Origin: an uncultured Draconibacterium sp. | GTDB taxonomy: Bacteria; Bacteroidota; Bacteroidia; Bacteroidales; Prolixibacteraceae | Assembly (NCBI RefSeq): GCF_963674925.2 | Contig: NZ_CAXXRE010000003.1 | Location: forward strand, 2,047,199-2,111,198 | Direction: 5' to 3' | DNA: 64,000 nt | Part shown: piece after piece, positions 2,499-10,355 of the stretch | Layout of the letters: each line of letters starts with the position of its first letter | Numbering within the stretch: the first letter of the stretch is position 1 | Translations under genes and position numbers: made by a program | The notes under the pieces: model-generated | Told to the model about the DNA's origin: nothing | What the model saw: only the letters and a program-made list of their open reading frames with translations | Database searches by the model: none

Positions 2499-2530
2499 AA
2501 AAACGGCTCACCGTGAAATCCGATGAGCCG
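2499..2530 (-). terminator. Attenuator terminator 2 (proximal to trpE)
   Basis: Minus strand CGGCTCATCG-GATTTCA-CGGTGAGCCG followed by TTTTT. Confidence 0.85.
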
Positions 2531-2561
2531 CTTTAAGTTTATGCAATGACGTATCCTCTCT

Positions 2562-2618
2562 TCACGATATTTGTAAAAAGTTGCTACGCCACCACCAAAT
2601 GTTATTGTTTGTTCTCAT
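2562..2618 (-). CDS. trpL: trp leader peptide 2: MRTNNNIWWWRSNFLQIS
   Basis: Hand-translated 18-aa ORF with three consecutive TGG codons directly upstream of an intrinsic terminator and trpE. Confidence 0.85.
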   Translation of the reverse strand: MRTNNNIWWWRSNFLQIS

Positions 2619-2637
2619 AATATTTAATCTTTTGCAT

Positions 2638-2665
2638 AAAAAAACCTGCTTTTGTTAGAAGCAGG
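2638..2665 (-). terminator. Attenuator terminator 1 (distal)
   Basis: Minus strand CCTGCTT-CTAACAA-AAGCAGG followed by T7. Confidence 0.85.
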
Positions 2666-2710
2666 CCTGTCATATCTTTAAAAATAGCAATATGGCTCTT
2701 AACTCCTAAC

Positions 2711-2761
2711 TTACGTAAGAAGACCCCACCACGGAAGCCATATTGTATTTATTTTTTGCAT
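2711..2761 (-). CDS. trpL: trp leader peptide 1: MQKINTIWLPWWGLLT
   Basis: Hand-translated 16-aa ORF with three Trp codons (W8, W11, W12) followed by alternative hairpins and a terminator. Confidence 0.8.
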   Translation of the reverse strand: MQKINTIWLPWWGLLT

Positions 2762-2867: not shown

Positions 2868-5800
2868 TTAGTTCGCCAGTGTGAAACGGAAACTTACTCC
2901 AAAATTCGCATTGGTTGTACGGTACGATAGCGAGGTAAACGGATCGTTAATAATACGATCGTAGTATACACGCATTTCAAATTTATCACTCAAGCGGTAG
3001 TCGGCATAGGTTTTTAAGGTAAAGTTACCTTGTCCTGCTGTAATCTGGTTGCTGTCATCGTCCAACTGGCGTAAAAGTGTTTTTGTTTTACGGTACGAAA
3101 TATCAGCACGAACATTTAAATCATTCGAGTAAGCCTGTTGCGAATTTTTTGTTTTAATGATCAAATCCATTCGTGTAAATCGATAGCCTAATCCAAAAGT
3201 ATATTCGTTGCTCAGTATCTCGGTAAGCTGGTTATTCGATAACGACAGGTTCAGGTTACGAGCACGTTTGATCTCTCCGCGTGTAGTCAGGTCGCTAAGC
3301 CACATGATGTCGATATTGATCAGCGGATTGAAAGCTTCAACGATACTTACCGTATTAAAATCGTACGCAGGAACAAAGTTATCGGCCAGGTCGCGCACCA
3401 TGGTGTAGCCATCTTCGGCAGCAATAAAATTCAGGTTGGTAGCATACGAGCCAACGTTGTAAGTTGAACGGTAGGTATGTTGGAAATTCATCGAACGCAT
3501 TACCTTATTCAGCCCCGGAATACGCGATACCATTCCTTCGTAACGAATGCTCCAGTTTGGCCGCATATATTTTAATGACGGGAACAAGCCCAGTGAAACA
3601 TCTTCAGGACTTTTATTTTGATAAGCTGCCAGGAATGCCGGAACAAGAACTTCAACCGAGTTTGGCCCGTAACCATCAGGATACCCCGGATAGTTTTCGT
3701 TTGGAGCAGATGGATCATAACCAGCACTTGTTCCACGCTGTTGTGCCAAACGGTGAGCAATTACACGGCGGTATTCTTTCATATTTTCGAAGGCATCGGA
3801 GCTGGTTACTTCTTCTTTTCCTATTTTAAAGAAGGCTGTTCCTAATGTTAGTGTCGACATACTAAAGTTTCCGCTTTCCGAGTAACTGTTGGCTACAAAA
3901 CTACCTGAGTTTGTATCGTAATTGTAGAATTCAGTAATATTTTTCGATATCGAGCGGTTCGCATTGATGTCAATACGCAAATCGGGGAGAGGTTCCCACA
4001 AGGTTCGCAAATTAATCCGCTCGTTTTCCATAATCTGGAAAGGTTGATTTAATGTTGAATCGATGGTCAGCCAGCCGTTCTCTGCAGCTTTTATCGCAAA
4101 GTTGCGGTCTTGCCAGCCAAACAGGAATGGAAGTCCCGGAGCCAGTTTCGGATCGGGTGTTTCTGTTCCCCATTGCGGATCGCCACTAAATTTACCGGTT
4201 CCAAACAACGTTGGTTCAGGCAGGAAGCCCGGCAAAACAGTACCTCCGTTTTTGCTGTAGTTTACAGTGAAGGTGCGGATTCCAATTACCATTCTTGTCG
4301 TTAAATCCAACATGTCTTTTGCGAACGTCTGATCGCCGCGTTTTCCGGTAACAGTAAGCATTGCCTGTTGCACGTCAACCGATGGAACAAATTCGATGGT
4401 ATTGGCATCAATAATATTTGTTTTTCCCGGAACCGTTTTGCCGTCGACATCGGTTACCAGAACTTTTATCTTTTTGGTATTTAGCTTGTGGGCAAATTTT
4501 TGGCCCTGGTCGGCTGTAAATTTGGCACTTCTGCTAAATGTCTCTTCCTGTTTTCGTTGCAGTGGTTCGGCTTGCTGGTTTGCTCCTCCTCTTGTACTCC
4601 GGCTGTTGAGGCTGCCACGCCCACGTCCTGTTCGCCTGAATTTTTGGTCAACCTCTTTAAAATAAGGCACCTTGTTAAACAGGGTTTGGAAGTTGGCGTT
4701 ACCGGTAAGTGTAAGGTTGCGCGAGTTGGTTATTATATTTCCAATGTTAATGTCGTCGTTGGTTAACGATCCGGCAGCCCATTCATAGGTTCCCGAGTAG
4801 CGAACGGTTCCGCTCATAAAATTCAATGCTTTAATACTTCGGAGCGGCACCTGGTAAGTGGCATTAAAACTGTGGTTGTAAATGGTTGGTCGCCCTAAAT
4901 TCCAAAGATTTGTAAGAATCGAGTCGCGTTTCCATTCATAATCGTCGTCGTTTTTATTAATCCGGCCTTCGGGTTCATCAATTCGTGAGGTTCCGCGTGA
5001 TGAGAAATCGACTTTCAGCGAACGGGTAACATCATAGCGAATATCGAGGTAACGGTTCCACAGGAAATCCTTGTCAAAAGTAGACGGCAGAATCAGGTTT
5101 GGATTGGTAATATTCCTGGAGTGACGCTCGTGGTACTTACGGAAGAGGTCGGTACGATACGAAATTTGTGTTGGCAGCGGATAAAAGTTAAAGTCGCCAA
5201 TTAATTTTAAAGGCCCTTTTTGCAGCAACTGAACTTTGCTGAACGGCTGAATCAATTTTGGCCGGTTGCTGTAATTGTACGAGAACATAAAACGGTGTGT
5301 TCTGTTCACGTTGTACTCTGTTGTAATGTTACGTTTCGAAGTTTCGTTGTACGAATAGGTAACGGCAAAGTTTTCCGGATCCCACAAATGTGTTTTCTCT
5401 TTTTGGCGCTGTGGCTCCACTTTCACGTTGGTAAAGTTGAGGCTTTTTCGCTCAATTACATCTTGCGATATATTTTTTATCGAATCCTTCTCGCTGCTGG
5501 TTCGTGCGTGAGACAGCGATTCTTTTAACTCAATATCCGGATTTATCGGATCGTATTTTGGTGTTGCTGTACTGTTGGAGTAGCCATAGTACATCGGAAT
5601 ACGCACACCGGCTCTTTCAGGGAAGAAACGTCCCCAGTCGATAGATGCCGACACATCGATTTCATCCAGATCGTCGATCATCCTGTTGTTAATATTTTCA
5701 TCAATACTTCCGAAACCCGCAGTGCGTTTACGACCGGCAACGACCACGCTACCCAAATCGGCCAAACGTGTTGAAACACGTGCGTTAGCCGCCCAGCCAC

Positions 5801-8800
5801 CTTCGTCATCAAAATCGGTAAGGCGTAATTCGTTGGCCCAAACAATTACCGATTTCGGCCCCGTGTTTACCTGTCCTCTTTTGTTGCGAACACCCATCAT
5901 CATTACCTCAACATTTCCCAGGTTCGGGCTTCCTTTTACTTTTACCCGGTTTTTACCGTCGTTCCATCCCTTGTGCGAACCTTCAAAAATGTCCTGCATC
6001 GAAATGCCTGAGCCTTCCACTCTCATGGCATCGTTACGTTCCAGTTTCAGGTTGGTAAACAGTTCGAGCGGAATATTTATCCGGTTTTGGTCGGGCCAAA
6101 CGATATAACGGTCGCTTTCAATATCTCCATTATAATTTCCTTCCGGAGTAAGCGTCAATGGTACTTCGTATTCGTAATAGTTATAATTGTAATCCGAACC
6201 CAAACGTATAAAGAAATACAGTTCATCGTTTTCCAGCGGATATTCTTCAATTTCTTCGGCGTGCACATCCATTTTCAGGGTTTTGTACCTTCTGAAATCC
6301 ATGTACAACGGTTTGTATGCCGCACGTGCGTCGCCTGTTTCCAGCTGGGTTACTTTCATTTCAATCGACTGCTCGTTTAGCTGGCGTAGCTGTGGATTGG
6401 CAGGGTCGATTACCCTTGATACTCCCGGAGGCAAAATGTAGTTCACCGGGGAGCGGCCTGAATTTTCCTCGATACTTACTGCCGAAATATCGAATTGTGC
6501 ATCTGTTGAAGGAATTCCACCATCCTCCAGAATATCGCCGGTGTAACGACGCCAATCGGCACGAACAAGGTCGAGTGTGGCAAAACGCATAACGGCAGAA
6601 TCCTGAAACCCGTGTAAGAACATTCTCATAAAGCGAATGGAACTAAAATCGTTGATACCTCCGATTACTGCATCAGGTTTAGTTACCGGAATCTTAAACT
6701 GATACCAGGCAGCTTCTCCTGTTTTGCCATTTTTTAACTGAACCGGCCGGCTTCTTTTATCAACAATGTAATTCCTTCCAACAACCATATCCTCCTTTTT
6801 AATACTAACCTTGTATTGAAAATAGCGTTCGTATTCATTCAGCGTATTGTCATCGTTAATATCTTCAATATCAGGCAGTGTGGTTGCCGAAGTAGGATAG
6901 CTTTCAGGCGACATTTCCGTAGTTGGCGAGTTGCCTTCGGGGCCGTTGTATTGTTTGTAACGTGCTAAAATGCTTACTTGATCTCTGTCGTAATCAGATC
7001 CACGGAAATAGTGGAAGTTATCTGATGATGGATCGTCCAATGCTTTCAGGTAAACCTCGTTATTTACTTTTAGTTCCAGTTCCTGCAGGTATTGCTGGAA
7101 GTGAGTCTGTTCATCGTCATCATTCAAGCCGTCAAAACCAATATCCTGGTATTCGCGCGAATTTACCGTGTTATCAAAAGCATTTACCAGCGATTGTTGT
7201 GTTGATACACGTCCCCAAATGGTGGTGTCGACATTCGTTGGTTCGGCAGTTGTAGGTAATCCGTTCTCAAATGATTTCCGCGAGTCTTTTAATACATCTT
7301 CCGAAATTTCTCCAAGGTTGAAATACAGTTCTCCTTCATTTTCCATCGGTTCAAGTGGCCCCCAATCATCATCAGGGTCAACATATGGGTCCATCATCCA
7401 GAATTCGATGTATTCGATGTTGGCATTTTCAAAGTCGCTGGTTTGTATTTCGCGCATAATACCCCCCCAGCGCGACTCCGGATCGCGTAAAGTACCATCG
7501 GGGTTTACACCTGCCGCATTACTGGAGTTACCTGTGTCGTAATTGTACGGACCACGCTCTTTCGGATAAAAAGCCAGGTCGAGCACTGCAATGTTTGTTG
7601 GCTCGCCGGTTGTAAATTCACGTTCCGGAAATATCTCTTGTTCGAACACCTCGCGCACCAGGTGGTTCGATTGTAAATCCCGGTCATTTTTTATATAATC
7701 GGGAGTAAGCGAATTGTTTCTCAAAAACAAGGGGTCGATGTTATACCATGCCAACTTTGCACGGTTCATACCATACTCGAGCGAGTTGCTCAGGTTGGCT
7801 TCCGGAAACATATTGTTTTGGTTCTGCGGTGTACTTGCCAGCATCCATGCTGAACGGGTTCGCATATCGATGGCTGTTTTTGTCGACTCAAAATCATCAA
7901 TATAAACAGCTCCGTTAATCGATTTTGAACTTCCCGGAATCAGTTGGGCAAATTCTGCCTCAACATCAATTGATGAAGTGGCGGTTGTACTATAAAACGG
8001 CAGTGCGTCTAATGCTTTGGTGATAAAAGGCGCTTCGGTGTTGTAGCGGGCATCCATTCCGTATATCATGTTCGAAATCGGATCTTCGCCATAATCCACT
8101 TTTTCAGTTAAAGGGCGTTCGTTCATCCACAACATGGTTGCTCCAATATTAAAATTATCGGAGAAAGCATAGTTGGCATGTGTTCCCATCAGGGTTTTGC
8201 GCTGCATGGTAAACAGGTCCTCGCTTTCGGTTGCAACCTGAATCGGCGTTCCGGCTTCCAACAGTGCCTGGTTAATAATTTTTACCCGGCCAAGCGTGTA
8301 GTCAACCGTATAATCGACATTTTCGGTAAGCACTTGTCCGCCGGCTGTAACCGTAACCGAACCTTGCGTAAGGTTTAAAGTACCCAGCGCAATGTCGGAA
8401 CTTGACGAACCTTTGTAACTACCGGTAAGCCTGAATTTATTGTGCTCGGCATCCTGTTCTGCTTTTACCTGGGTAGAATCGTACAGCGTTTGGAAAGTGA
8501 ATCGCTCAATGTCGGACGGATTTTGAAGTGAATCGGCCAGGTGACTGCCAAATGGTTCAACCACCGGGAAAATAATACGTCCCGAGTTGGAGTTAACCGT
8601 AATGCCTTCAACATAGTCGAACACCCCGTCTTTTGTTGGGTCGAGCTGCGAATTGAGCATATCCAGCCGCATTACCTCCAAAAGAATATGTCCCTGGATT
8701 CGCGATGCGGGCAGATAATTGATATAGGTTCCCGTAGAGTCGTTTTGGTATACCACATTTAATTCAAAATCGTCGCTGCTTAACTGGTAGGCATTCAGAT

Positions 8801-10355
8801 TATAAATGTTTTTCATCATCAGGTTCCAGGTTGGTTTTCCCGGCGACAAGTTGGTGCCTTTCAGCAACTTCATAAAAAGTGTTTGCGGCGCATCAATACC
8901 GTCGGTTGAGAATTCACCTACCTGAAATGTTTGGCCGTTGTAGGTAAAGTTAAAGGCTACTGCCAAAACTTCATCGGTATTTAAAGCACTGTTTAACGAA
9001 ATATATCCCAATTGTTTGTTGATGGTAAATTCAGTATCGTTCAGTTTTCGTGCCTGCTCAATTTTTTCAAAGTCGGTTCCGCCTTTAAAATCCTCCCCGA
9101 ATTGTGACATTACACTGGTAATATTCTGTACCTGACGAACATCACTGTAGGTGGTCTTCATTTCGTTGTAAAGGCCGTTGGCCTCGTTGTTTGGGAATAG
9201 ATTTAGAGGGTAGGGCAGTCCGTTATTTTGCTGAAACTGCGGAATCGGGTTGTAAATATGCGGATCGTGTTCGGCTAAATCCTGAAAGGCCAGAATGTTT
9301 CGCGAATCATCAAAATCGTTTGATTTATTGGTTACCCAAACTTCTACTTTGTTGATGGTGATGGGCGAACGCGGAATAGCCGTGCTTTGCAACCATTCGT
9401 TGTAGTGATCGCGGAAATATTGTGCCAGGAAAAAGTGGCGGTTGGCATCGTAATTGGCCGCTGACATATCGAAAGTGGCCACCTGGGCACCTCCTTCGGT
9501 TTCCACTGTTCTGGATTCACCGCGGTGTTGCGAAAACAGCGTGGTAACCGTAAGCTTGCCGAACTGCATTTCGGCTTTAACACCAAACAGGTTGGAAGCT
9601 CCGGTTATTAACGAACCGTTTAGGGGCAACGACACATTACCGGCTTCAATACGTTGTAGTATTTCATCTTCGTCGCCGGTGTACTCAAGGTTCATTTTGT
9701 TTTCGTAATCAAAAGTAGCCTCGGTGTTGTAGTTCACCCGCATATTCATTTTTGTACCGATCTGGCCGGTAACGTTCATCTGAATTTTCTCGTCGAAATC
9801 AAAAGTCGGAACTTTTCGCAACCGTTCGGGAATCGACGGATTTTCAGTTTTATTTACCTGGTAGCCAAAACTTACTTCAACATAACCCTGCGGCTGTATA
9901 TTGATGGTGTTTCCTCCGAAAATACGGTTAAACGCCTCGCTGCCAATTGTAAGTTTTGGCAGCAGTCCTCCACGGGCATCAATCGATTCCTGATGTGTTC
10001 TCATTCGCCAGTAATCCTGAATCGATTTATCGAAATCATATTCGAGGTAATCGTCGAGCGACATACTTTGCGGCAAACGGTAATTCAGCGATCCCACCTT
10101 TTCGTAAAACACGTACTGACCTGTAATCGGGTCGTACTCAATTTCGTATTTTATGTTGCTGGGCTTGTTGAGGTATAATTTCGACGAATCCTGGGTAGGA
10201 TATCCAAAAGCCGGCTGGTCTTCGAAGGGGTATGGCAATGTGCCCGTTGTATCTATTTCAGGCACTTCCTGAGCTTCTCCGTAGAAAGGAACTGAAAGGG
10301 CAAAAAATACAAATAGAATGAAGAATATTTTAGGTAAACTTCGGCTAAGTGTCAT
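2868..10355 (-). CDS. sprA: Type IX secretion system outer-membrane translocon SprA/Sov
   Basis: 2495 aa; FDFDEKIQMNVTGQIG, GNVSLPLNGSLITG, YIDDFE, RWGGIMR, WANELRL motifs; C-terminal Phe-rich beta strand; conserved ruvA-sprA synteny. Confidence 0.95.
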   Translation of the reverse strand: MTLSRSLPKIFFILFVFFALSVPFYGEAQEVPEIDTTGTLPYPFEDQPAFGYPTQDSSKLYLNKPSNIKYEIEYDPITGQYVFYEKVGSLNYRLPQSMSLDDYLEYDFDKSIQDYWRMRTHQESIDARGGLLPKLTIGSEAFNRIFGGNTINIQPQGYVEVSFGYQVNKTENPSIPERLRKVPTFDFDEKIQMNVTGQIGTKMNMRVNYNTEATFDYENKMNLEYTGDEDEILQRIEAGNVSLPLNGSLITGASNLFGVKAEMQFGKLTVTTLFSQHRGESRTVETEGGAQVATFDMSAANYDANRHFFLAQYFRDHYNEWLQSTAIPRSPITINKVEVWVTNKSNDFDDSRNILAFQDLAEHDPHIYNPIPQFQQNNGLPYPLNLFPNNEANGLYNEMKTTYSDVRQVQNITSVMSQFGEDFKGGTDFEKIEQARKLNDTEFTINKQLGYISLNSALNTDEVLAVAFNFTYNGQTFQVGEFSTDGIDAPQTLFMKLLKGTNLSPGKPTWNLMMKNIYNLNAYQLSSDDFELNVVYQNDSTGTYINYLPASRIQGHILLEVMRLDMLNSQLDPTKDGVFDYVEGITVNSNSGRIIFPVVEPFGSHLADSLQNPSDIERFTFQTLYDSTQVKAEQDAEHNKFRLTGSYKGSSSSDIALGTLNLTQGSVTVTAGGQVLTENVDYTVDYTLGRVKIINQALLEAGTPIQVATESEDLFTMQRKTLMGTHANYAFSDNFNIGATMLWMNERPLTEKVDYGEDPISNMIYGMDARYNTEAPFITKALDALPFYSTTATSSIDVEAEFAQLIPGSSKSINGAVYIDDFESTKTAIDMRTRSAWMLASTPQNQNNMFPEANLSNSLEYGMNRAKLAWYNIDPLFLRNNSLTPDYIKNDRDLQSNHLVREVFEQEIFPEREFTTGEPTNIAVLDLAFYPKERGPYNYDTGNSSNAAGVNPDGTLRDPESRWGGIMREIQTSDFENANIEYIEFWMMDPYVDPDDDWGPLEPMENEGELYFNLGEISEDVLKDSRKSFENGLPTTAEPTNVDTTIWGRVSTQQSLVNAFDNTVNSREYQDIGFDGLNDDDEQTHFQQYLQELELKVNNEVYLKALDDPSSDNFHYFRGSDYDRDQVSILARYKQYNGPEGNSPTTEMSPESYPTSATTLPDIEDINDDNTLNEYERYFQYKVSIKKEDMVVGRNYIVDKRSRPVQLKNGKTGEAAWYQFKIPVTKPDAVIGGINDFSSIRFMRMFLHGFQDSAVMRFATLDLVRADWRRYTGDILEDGGIPSTDAQFDISAVSIEENSGRSPVNYILPPGVSRVIDPANPQLRQLNEQSIEMKVTQLETGDARAAYKPLYMDFRRYKTLKMDVHAEEIEEYPLENDELYFFIRLGSDYNYNYYEYEVPLTLTPEGNYNGDIESDRYIVWPDQNRINIPLELFTNLKLERNDAMRVEGSGISMQDIFEGSHKGWNDGKNRVKVKGSPNLGNVEVMMMGVRNKRGQVNTGPKSVIVWANELRLTDFDDEGGWAANARVSTRLADLGSVVVAGRKRTAGFGSIDENINNRMIDDLDEIDVSASIDWGRFFPERAGVRIPMYYGYSNSTATPKYDPINPDIELKESLSHARTSSEKDSIKNISQDVIERKSLNFTNVKVEPQRQKEKTHLWDPENFAVTYSYNETSKRNITTEYNVNRTHRFMFSYNYSNRPKLIQPFSKVQLLQKGPLKLIGDFNFYPLPTQISYRTDLFRKYHERHSRNITNPNLILPSTFDKDFLWNRYLDIRYDVTRSLKVDFSSRGTSRIDEPEGRINKNDDDYEWKRDSILTNLWNLGRPTIYNHSFNATYQVPLRSIKALNFMSGTVRYSGTYEWAAGSLTNDDINIGNIITNSRNLTLTGNANFQTLFNKVPYFKEVDQKFRRTGRGRGSLNSRSTRGGANQQAEPLQRKQEETFSRSAKFTADQGQKFAHKLNTKKIKVLVTDVDGKTVPGKTNIIDANTIEFVPSVDVQQAMLTVTGKRGDQTFAKDMLDLTTRMVIGIRTFTVNYSKNGGTVLPGFLPEPTLFGTGKFSGDPQWGTETPDPKLAPGLPFLFGWQDRNFAIKAAENGWLTIDSTLNQPFQIMENERINLRTLWEPLPDLRIDINANRSISKNITEFYNYDTNSGSFVANSYSESGNFSMSTLTLGTAFFKIGKEEVTSSDAFENMKEYRRVIAHRLAQQRGTSAGYDPSAPNENYPGYPDGYGPNSVEVLVPAFLAAYQNKSPEDVSLGLFPSLKYMRPNWSIRYEGMVSRIPGLNKVMRSMNFQHTYRSTYNVGSYATNLNFIAAEDGYTMVRDLADNFVPAYDFNTVSIVEAFNPLINIDIMWLSDLTTRGEIKRARNLNLSLSNNQLTEILSNEYTFGLGYRFTRMDLIIKTKNSQQAYSNDLNVRADISYRKTKTLLRQLDDDSNQITAGQGNFTLKTYADYRLSDKFEMRVYYDRIINDPFTSLSYRTTNANFGVSFRFTLAN

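Follow-up and report, generated by a model that had tools for sequence, protein, structure and literature searches.

The tryptophan operon trpEGDCFBA in the window, by which we mean the whole 64,000-nucleotide stretch of Draconibacterium (Prolixibacteraceae) DNA that was analyzed, is quite probably preceded by one promoter and then by two independent ribosome-mediated Trp attenuators in series; the start site, the Trp dependence and the independence of the two units are inferred from sequence. Both units are located in the minus-strand interval between a 2495-aa open-reading frame (stop codon at 2868) and trpE (2428–1019), whose product is 99.8% identical to TrpE of D. mangrovi, the closest named species, over the 431 residues compared. 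The G+C content of the genome is 40.8%. Each unit has a short ORF with clustered Trp codons upstream of the operon, the frame of which is preserved across species, an intrinsic terminator (T1 or T2) between this ORF and trpE, and an antiterminator that is exclusive with the terminator, which for unit 2 appears only in nascent-transcript folds. An earlier note on this DNA had described two complete Trp attenuators in tandem upstream of trpE, and all ORFs, helices, and terminators were found as it described them; its interpretation of the pair as ribosome-mediated attenuators is likewise supported, as both units carry every required part, conserved with covariation over many species.

Table 1 Features of the trp leader region of the window and of related loci. 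Rows giving L numbers refer to loci of other species
Feature	Position	Strand	Details
Promoter-like motif	2783–2812	−	−33 TTTG (2812–2809) and −7 box TTTTCTTG (2790–2783); conserved 5′ of leader 1
Leader ORF 1, MQKINTIWLPWWGLLT	2711–2761	−	ATG 2761–2759, TAA 2713–2711
Unit 1 helices P1 and P2 (anti-antiterminator)	2682–2750	−	Minimum free energy (MFE) fold
Unit 1 antiterminator	2654–2710	−	GUUAGGAGU (2710–2702) with GCUUCUAAC (2662–2654); ribosome-constrained folds
Terminator 1 (T1)	2638–2668	−	10-bp stem (2668–2642), 7-nt loop, T7 run (2644–2638)
Leader ORF 2, MRTNNNIWWWRSNFLQIS	2562–2618	−	ATG 2618–2616, TGA 2564–2562
Unit 2 helices P1 and P2	2543–2595	−	Fold, z = −7.0
Unit 2 antiterminator	2509–2569	−	UAUCGUGAAG (2569–2560) with UUUCACGGUG (2518–2509); nascent-transcript fold
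Terminator 2 (T2)	2494–2534	−	14-bp stem (2534–2501), 7-nt loop, then T-rich tail TTTTTCGTTT
trpE, first gene of trpE-G-D-C-F-B-A	1019–2428	−	Pfam matches for all seven genes, one orientation
MntA/HepT pair, L043	2141–2467 and 1843–2172	−	Between T1 and leader 2
MntA/HepT pair, L089	4947–5273 and 4643–4978	−	Between T1 and leader 2
MntA/HepT pair, further loci			L048, L052, L098, L103, L110; decayed in L056, L062
Loci without leader-1 start and T1			L131, L132, L134, L138, L154, L165–L170; core AAATACAATATGGCTTCCGTGGTGGGGTCTTCTT .. AGCCATATTGGTATTTT as in the window

The Trp codons of leader 1 are at positions 8 (2740–2738), 11 (2731–2729), and 12 (2728–2726), and its stop codon is located within the loop of helix P2. 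Its frame is retained in all 116 loci that have T1, with 16 or 17 codons and an ATG or GTG start. Leader 2 has its Trp codons at positions 8–10 (2597–2589), and its UGA stop falls inside the CGUGA strand of the antiterminator. T1 was detected by a consensus terminator scan. When both strands of the genome (5.8 Mb) were scanned for a short TGGTGG-containing ORF followed by a terminator, nine matches were obtained, two of which are these adjacent leaders.

The two units are built on a shared plan, in which an outer helix P1 that includes Trp codons and an inner helix P2 at the end of the ORF are followed by the terminator. In unit 1, P1 joins 2750–2735 to 2699–2682 (strands AAAUACAAUAUGGCUU and ..AGCCAUAUUGCUAUUU) and includes Trp codon 8, P2 joins CUUCUUAC (2722–2715) to GUUAGGAG (2710–2703), and an internal loop of 11 nt, UCCGUGGUGGG, lies between them. 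The antiterminator strand GCUUCUAAC consists of the upper part of the 5′ arm of T1 together with the first bases of its loop, and the inner pairs of this antiterminator are AG:CU, GCC:GGC, and AUAUU:GAUAU. Alternative pairings proposed from first inspection of the letters were recovered in both units: CAAUAUGGC with GCCAUAUUG (2696–2688), as part of helix P1, and GUUAGGAG with CUUCUAAC in unit 1, and UGGCGUA with UACGUCA and CGUGAAG with UUUCACG in unit 2. In constrained folds with a ribosome at Trp 8, 11, or 12 of leader 1, the antiterminator displaces T1, and with a ribosome at the leader 1 stop codon, P1 and T1 form. By reckoning, a stall at Trp 8 leaves the 5′ strand of P2 uncovered, yet T1 is replaced in the equilibrium fold. 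A pairing of the 5′ UTR (AGAAGAUU with GGUCUUCU) seen in the Trp-8 fold was dropped, as the UTR segment is not conserved. Also set aside was an alternative-frame ORF (MASVVGSSYVS, 2741–2706, minus strand) that begins at the invariant AUG in AUAUGG, as it is devoid of Trp codons and stops at different positions in different species; its N-terminus is constant only because the nucleotides are.

In unit 2, P1 is formed by GUGGUGGCGUA (2595–2585) and UACGUCAUUGC (2553–2543) and includes Trp codons, and P2, a hairpin at the end of the ORF, by CUUUUUAC (2580–2573) and GUGAAGAG (2565–2558). The antiterminator strand UUUCACGGUG comprises the T2 loop and the first bases of the adjoining 3′ arm, and weaker antiterminator pairs extend to the 5′ arm. 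This antiterminator forms on the nascent transcript (−12.4 kcal/mol). T2 is far more stable and wins all full-length equilibrium folds, and therefore unit 2 must act kinetically. In E. coli, too, the terminator is more stable than the antiterminator.

In the mechanism that we propose, a promoter ~25 nt upstream of leader 1 would drive a single transcript through both attenuators into trpEGDCFBA. Stalling at Trp codons 11–12 of leader 1 would place a ribosome over the 5′ strands of P1 and P2, and the freed GUUAGGAGU would pair with the upper 5′ arm and the first loop bases of T1, which would block T1; with a ribosome at the stop codon, or with none, P1 and P2 would stay intact and T1 would terminate. 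A second ribosome would initiate ~20 nt past the T1 U-run, and its stalling at the WWW codons would free the ..UCGUGAAG.. strand, which would capture the loop and first 3′-arm bases of T2, and more weakly the 5′ arm, as these emerge, preventing nucleation of the hairpin. Read-through into the operon would require two successful stalls, so that the regulatory range should multiply and basal leakage should fall.

The doubled layout is kept in about a hundred related species, with both leaders and both terminators recurring across the genus and related genera. A search of relatives by TrpE found both units in 22 of the 22 assessable genomes of the genus, including two in which unit 1 at first seemed to be missing but lies at a greater upstream distance, separated from unit 2 by inserted genes. 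When the unit 1 core was searched for as an exact pattern, hits were obtained in 82 species, belonging to Draconibacterium, Maribellus, Mariniphaga, Tangfeifania, and other Prolixibacteraceae; every evaluable hit is located 5′ of trpE, and both units are present in each of the 77 loci whose sequence extends far enough.

Over 40 diverse species, 98% of cells in the terminated structure of unit 1 are paired, and three T1 stem pairs have changed on both sides. P1 is invariant, so no covariation is available there. The antiterminator of unit 1 has one free position, pair 78–147 of alignment A1, in which the partner is the first T1 loop base, and this pair covaries (GC 12, UA 9, CG 5, UG 2, AU 1). 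None of 500 shuffles reached this level, and on a trpE tree column 78 has undergone at least 10 changes. For unit 2, 90.7% of cells in the terminated structure are paired and eight pairs have changed on both sides, with compensatory pairs in T2 at 108–136 (AU 22, GC 13) and 109–135. Its antiterminator pair 65–128 of alignment A2 (CG 21, UA 10, UG 5, other 4) rests on few independent events within the family, and the independent-pairs test of it gave p = 1, with too few independent contrasts for power. Joint changes of the strand NCGUGA, the terminator segment UCACGN′, and the end of the 5′ arm are seen in other families of the order, as in AUCGUGAA:UUCACGAU, ACCGUGA:UCACGGU, GCUGUGAU:AUCACAGC, and CCGUAA:UUACGG. 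Covariation of the unit 2 antiterminator is thus thin within the family and clear across families of the order.

The promoter-like motif upstream of leader 1 recurs in ~80 species as a TTG element followed 18–21 nt later by TTCTTTTG, TTTCTTG, or ATATTTG, 22–28 nt before the leader-1 start. It resembles the Bacteroidota promoter consensus, TTTG/TAnnTTTG, and we infer a transcription start upstream of leader 1. The spacer from the T1 U-run to the leader-2 ATG has a median length of 13 nt (mostly 1–19 nt), and a motif resembling the −33/−7 arrangement is present in just 1 of 64 distinct spacers. RNA-library contigs of relatives (Logan, metatranscriptomes) bridge T1, unit 2, and T2 and continue into trpE; they offer weak support for one transcript, as such contigs show neither ends, strand, nor level and DNA can occur in RNA libraries. 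Upstream of the promoter, the 2495-aa ORF (window 2868–10355, minus strand), possibly an SprA-like type IX secretion protein judging by its size and phylum, ends 56 nt before the trp promoter, and one RNA-library contig of a relative covers both the end of this ORF and leader 1.

In ~11 species of Prolixibacteraceae, the gap between T1 and leader 2 is occupied by genes for an MntA-like nucleotidyltransferase and a HepT-like RNase (Pfam PF18765/PF01909 and PF01934), a pair that is absent from the window genome. These genes start 5–10 nt past the T1 U-run and extend as far as the leader-2 ATG, which the HepT stop codon abuts; they leave no room for a promoter in those species. If there is no internal promoter, transcription of the toxin–antitoxin pair would require read-through at T1. 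In the Mariniphaga group (L075, L086), the spacers of ~60 nt resemble a remnant of the HepT ORF, and for this reason the insertion seems to be old and to have been lost repeatedly.

The presence of this pair between the units, together with its apparent remnant, would fit a scheme of separate transcription units, with unit 1 as a stand-alone small gene or a regulator of the toxin–antitoxin genes and unit 2 under its own promoter, and a −7-like octamer does occur in 13 of the 64 spacers. We regard this scheme as very unlikely: the octamers arise from chance overlap with the U-run, the scarcity of the full arrangement and the short median spacer argue against a second promoter, as does the abutting HepT stop, T1 is bridged by the RNA-library contigs, and unit 1 is near-invariant in ~70 species that do not have the toxin–antitoxin pair. 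A transcription start between the units, which the earlier note had named as grounds for refutation, is not supported by spacer length, motif count, or the genes filling the gap, and we consider it unlikely that unit 2 has its own start. As the typical gap of 13 nt is without a promoter motif, operation in series on a single transcript is the most likely arrangement for the two units. Scarcely credible is the possibility that Trp-containing ORFs and hairpins arose by chance in an AT-rich spacer, or that T1 is the terminator of the 2495-aa gene. No separate terminator was detected directly 3′ of the stop codon of that gene at 2868, which speaks for the latter version, but a conserved promoter lies between the gene and leader 1, conservation and covariation span genera, and the genome background is only seven other matches in 11.6 Mb of strand.

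Unit 1 is more conserved than attenuation would seem to need. In a 40-species set that was picked by the core pattern, mean pairwise identity reaches 94% in the unit 1 core but 74% in the core of unit 2 and 73% in trpE DNA, in which third codon positions are at 49%; the genus sample picked by TrpE shows equal core invariance. The core consists of P1, the loop UCCGUGGUGGG, and P2; 34 and 17 nt of it are identical across ~15 genera, its wobble positions are almost fixed, and it is present in one copy per genome, always beside trpE. Much of this invariance can come from bases that take part in two or three exclusive helices plus coding, the bases concerned being those of P1, the inner pairs of the antiterminator, and the AUAU and GGCC palindromes. 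Neither T1 nor a start codon for the leader-1 frame exists in 11 loci from ~7 genera, and the 34-nt and 17-nt segments are still identical there. The leader-2 ATG lies 10–25 nt past the core in these loci, trpE is ~64–67% identical to that of the window in those measured, the 3′ strand of P2 is remodelled and pairs perfectly, and some retain an out-of-frame AUG-AUA-UAA mini-ORF. The leader-1 start and T1 are thus both present in 116 loci, both missing from 11, and never found one without the other, a count in which some species were entered twice and the 11 may derive from one event. This joint retention or loss favors control of T1 as the purpose of leader 1. The invariance of the core in the 11 loci without either shows what appears to be a further RNA-level constraint, for which attenuation alone would be insufficient.

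Given this conservation, it might be argued that unit 2 alone is a working trp attenuator and that unit 1 is mainly a sequence-specific RNA element (P1, UCCGUGGUGGG, and P2) bound by a protein, small molecule, or RNA, or else a terminated small RNA or a peptide acting in trans, its attenuator features being secondary. The excess identity of the core over unit 2 and trpE, its nearly fixed wobble positions, and its persistence in the start-less loci all favor such a role, for which Sinorhizobium rnTrpL and peTrpL, a trp attenuator RNA and peptide with extra roles in trans (PMC7298713, PMC7968998), would be a precedent and a possible model by analogy. We nevertheless consider it rather improbable that this is the main role of unit 1, as the in-frame start that accompanies T1 throughout and the covarying antiterminator are predictions of a working attenuator, the invariance can largely stem from multi-helix bases and coding, the genome yielded no TRAP homologue, and the core was in every case found as a single copy beside trpE. 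Such an element is in any case compatible with two attenuators in series and does not exclude them. T-box-like sensing of tRNA-Trp was considered and rejected, as neither the tRNA 3′ end, ..CCCGUGCCA, nor the anticodon loop, CUCCAAA, has convincing complementarity to the core, and UGGC and UGG in the core are too near each other to reach both tRNA ends. As a speculative extension of the series arrangement, to which we assign a low likelihood, the core may be a sequence-specific RNA element reading a second tryptophan-related input, with a protein, a partner RNA, or free tryptophan as candidates; the element would act on T1 here and on leader 2 translation in relatives without T1 and the leader-1 start codon.

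The arrangement resembles E. coli trpL (Yanofsky model; RF00513) in its short Trp-codon ORF, its exclusive 1:2, 2:3, and 3:4 helices, the terminator before trpE, and the antitermination that is proposed to follow ribosome stalling. It differs in that there are two complete units, no Shine–Dalgarno sequence, and no TrpR found, and in that the unit 2 antiterminator pairs with the loop and 3′ arm of the terminator and not solely with the 5′ arm. No homologue of TrpR (PF01371) or TRAP (PF02081) was found in the organism's own genome, rated 100% complete, which suggests a reason for the doubling, in that two attenuators in series could replace the repressor layer of E. coli. The Bacteroid-trp leader (RF01692; Weinberg et al. 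2010, PMC2864571) shares the phylum, the site 5′ of trp genes, the Trp-codon ORF, and the terminator, and was described as a single leader, whereas two units are present here. A single attenuator normally controls biosynthetic genes (PMC3641672). Two translated leader ORFs on one RNA, each governing elongation, are known from the Salmonella mgtCBR leader, in which mgtM and mgtP sense ATP and proline and act additively (Lee and Groisman 2012, PMC3641672); in the present case both units would respond to one signal, and each is followed by a terminator of its own, unlike mgtM and mgtP, which do not each have a classical intrinsic terminator. Tandem T-boxes and riboswitches (PMC7583486, PMC5912903) place two sensor-plus-terminator modules for one ligand in series, as would be the case here, and presumably make the response sharper or deeper, their mode of action being called unknown for T-boxes in PMC7583486, but there the RNA senses tRNA or metabolite directly, whereas the sensor here would be the translating ribosome.

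In the literature searched, outside subscription journals, no natural same-signal tandem leader-peptide attenuators were found. The doubled same-signal trp attenuators appear to be a well-supported variant of a known mechanism. A same-signal pair that is conserved over a subfamily and arises again in other families may be a natural test of stacked kinetic switches, in which stacking two attenuators could give a multiplied range, a lower leak, or a steeper response, and the differing antiterminator geometries (5′ arm versus loop and 3′ arm) allow a side-by-side comparison. The core that stays invariant after loss of the ORF start and terminator, and the nested toxin–antitoxin pair, add further testable questions.

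With regard to the origin of the doubling, the earlier note had pointed to the similar motifs that precede the two leaders, TGCAGAAGATTAA and TGCAAAAGATTAA. The likeness is real, with 12 of 13 positions matching in this genome, but as evidence of duplication the motif fails: it is not conserved in relatives, most of which have the second copy missing or altered, and the first copy coincides in part with the promoter's −7 box and start region. Duplication is instead supported by the common architecture and the P2 motif of both candidate paralogues. The consensus P1 of RF01692 (AAAUACauauUGG .. aauauG.UAu) aligns to P1 of unit 1, which scores 26.9 bits against a gathering cut-off of 49 bits; RF01692 gave no match to unit 2 and none in a whole-genome search, and RF00513 scores 26.3 bits on unit 1 against a cut-off of 41 bits. 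A positive control from another family, L118, scores 61.4 bits with RF01692 (leader MSKQLVNTFWWWCLQLKQVVRS), and its segment GUCGUGAGGAGCUAAGCC unites the CGUGA strand of unit 2 with the AGGAG strand of unit 1. Because L118 combines strands of both units and P1 aligns to the consensus, the units are best read as putative diverged paralogues of one Bacteroid-trp-like ancestor that are outside RF01692 by the Rfam threshold.

Within the family, genera with TrpE at most ~61% identical to that of the window mostly have a single WWW attenuator, and in nearer genera the pair is present, some of it with a more diverged unit 1 (IWLWWG..TFL). Outside the family but within the order, 3 of 21 genomes with trpE (L027, L114, and L123) have tandem WWW attenuators. 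In these, paired WWW leaders, each with its own terminator, are located 5′ of trpE and are unlike unit 1, so the three pairs probably arose independently.
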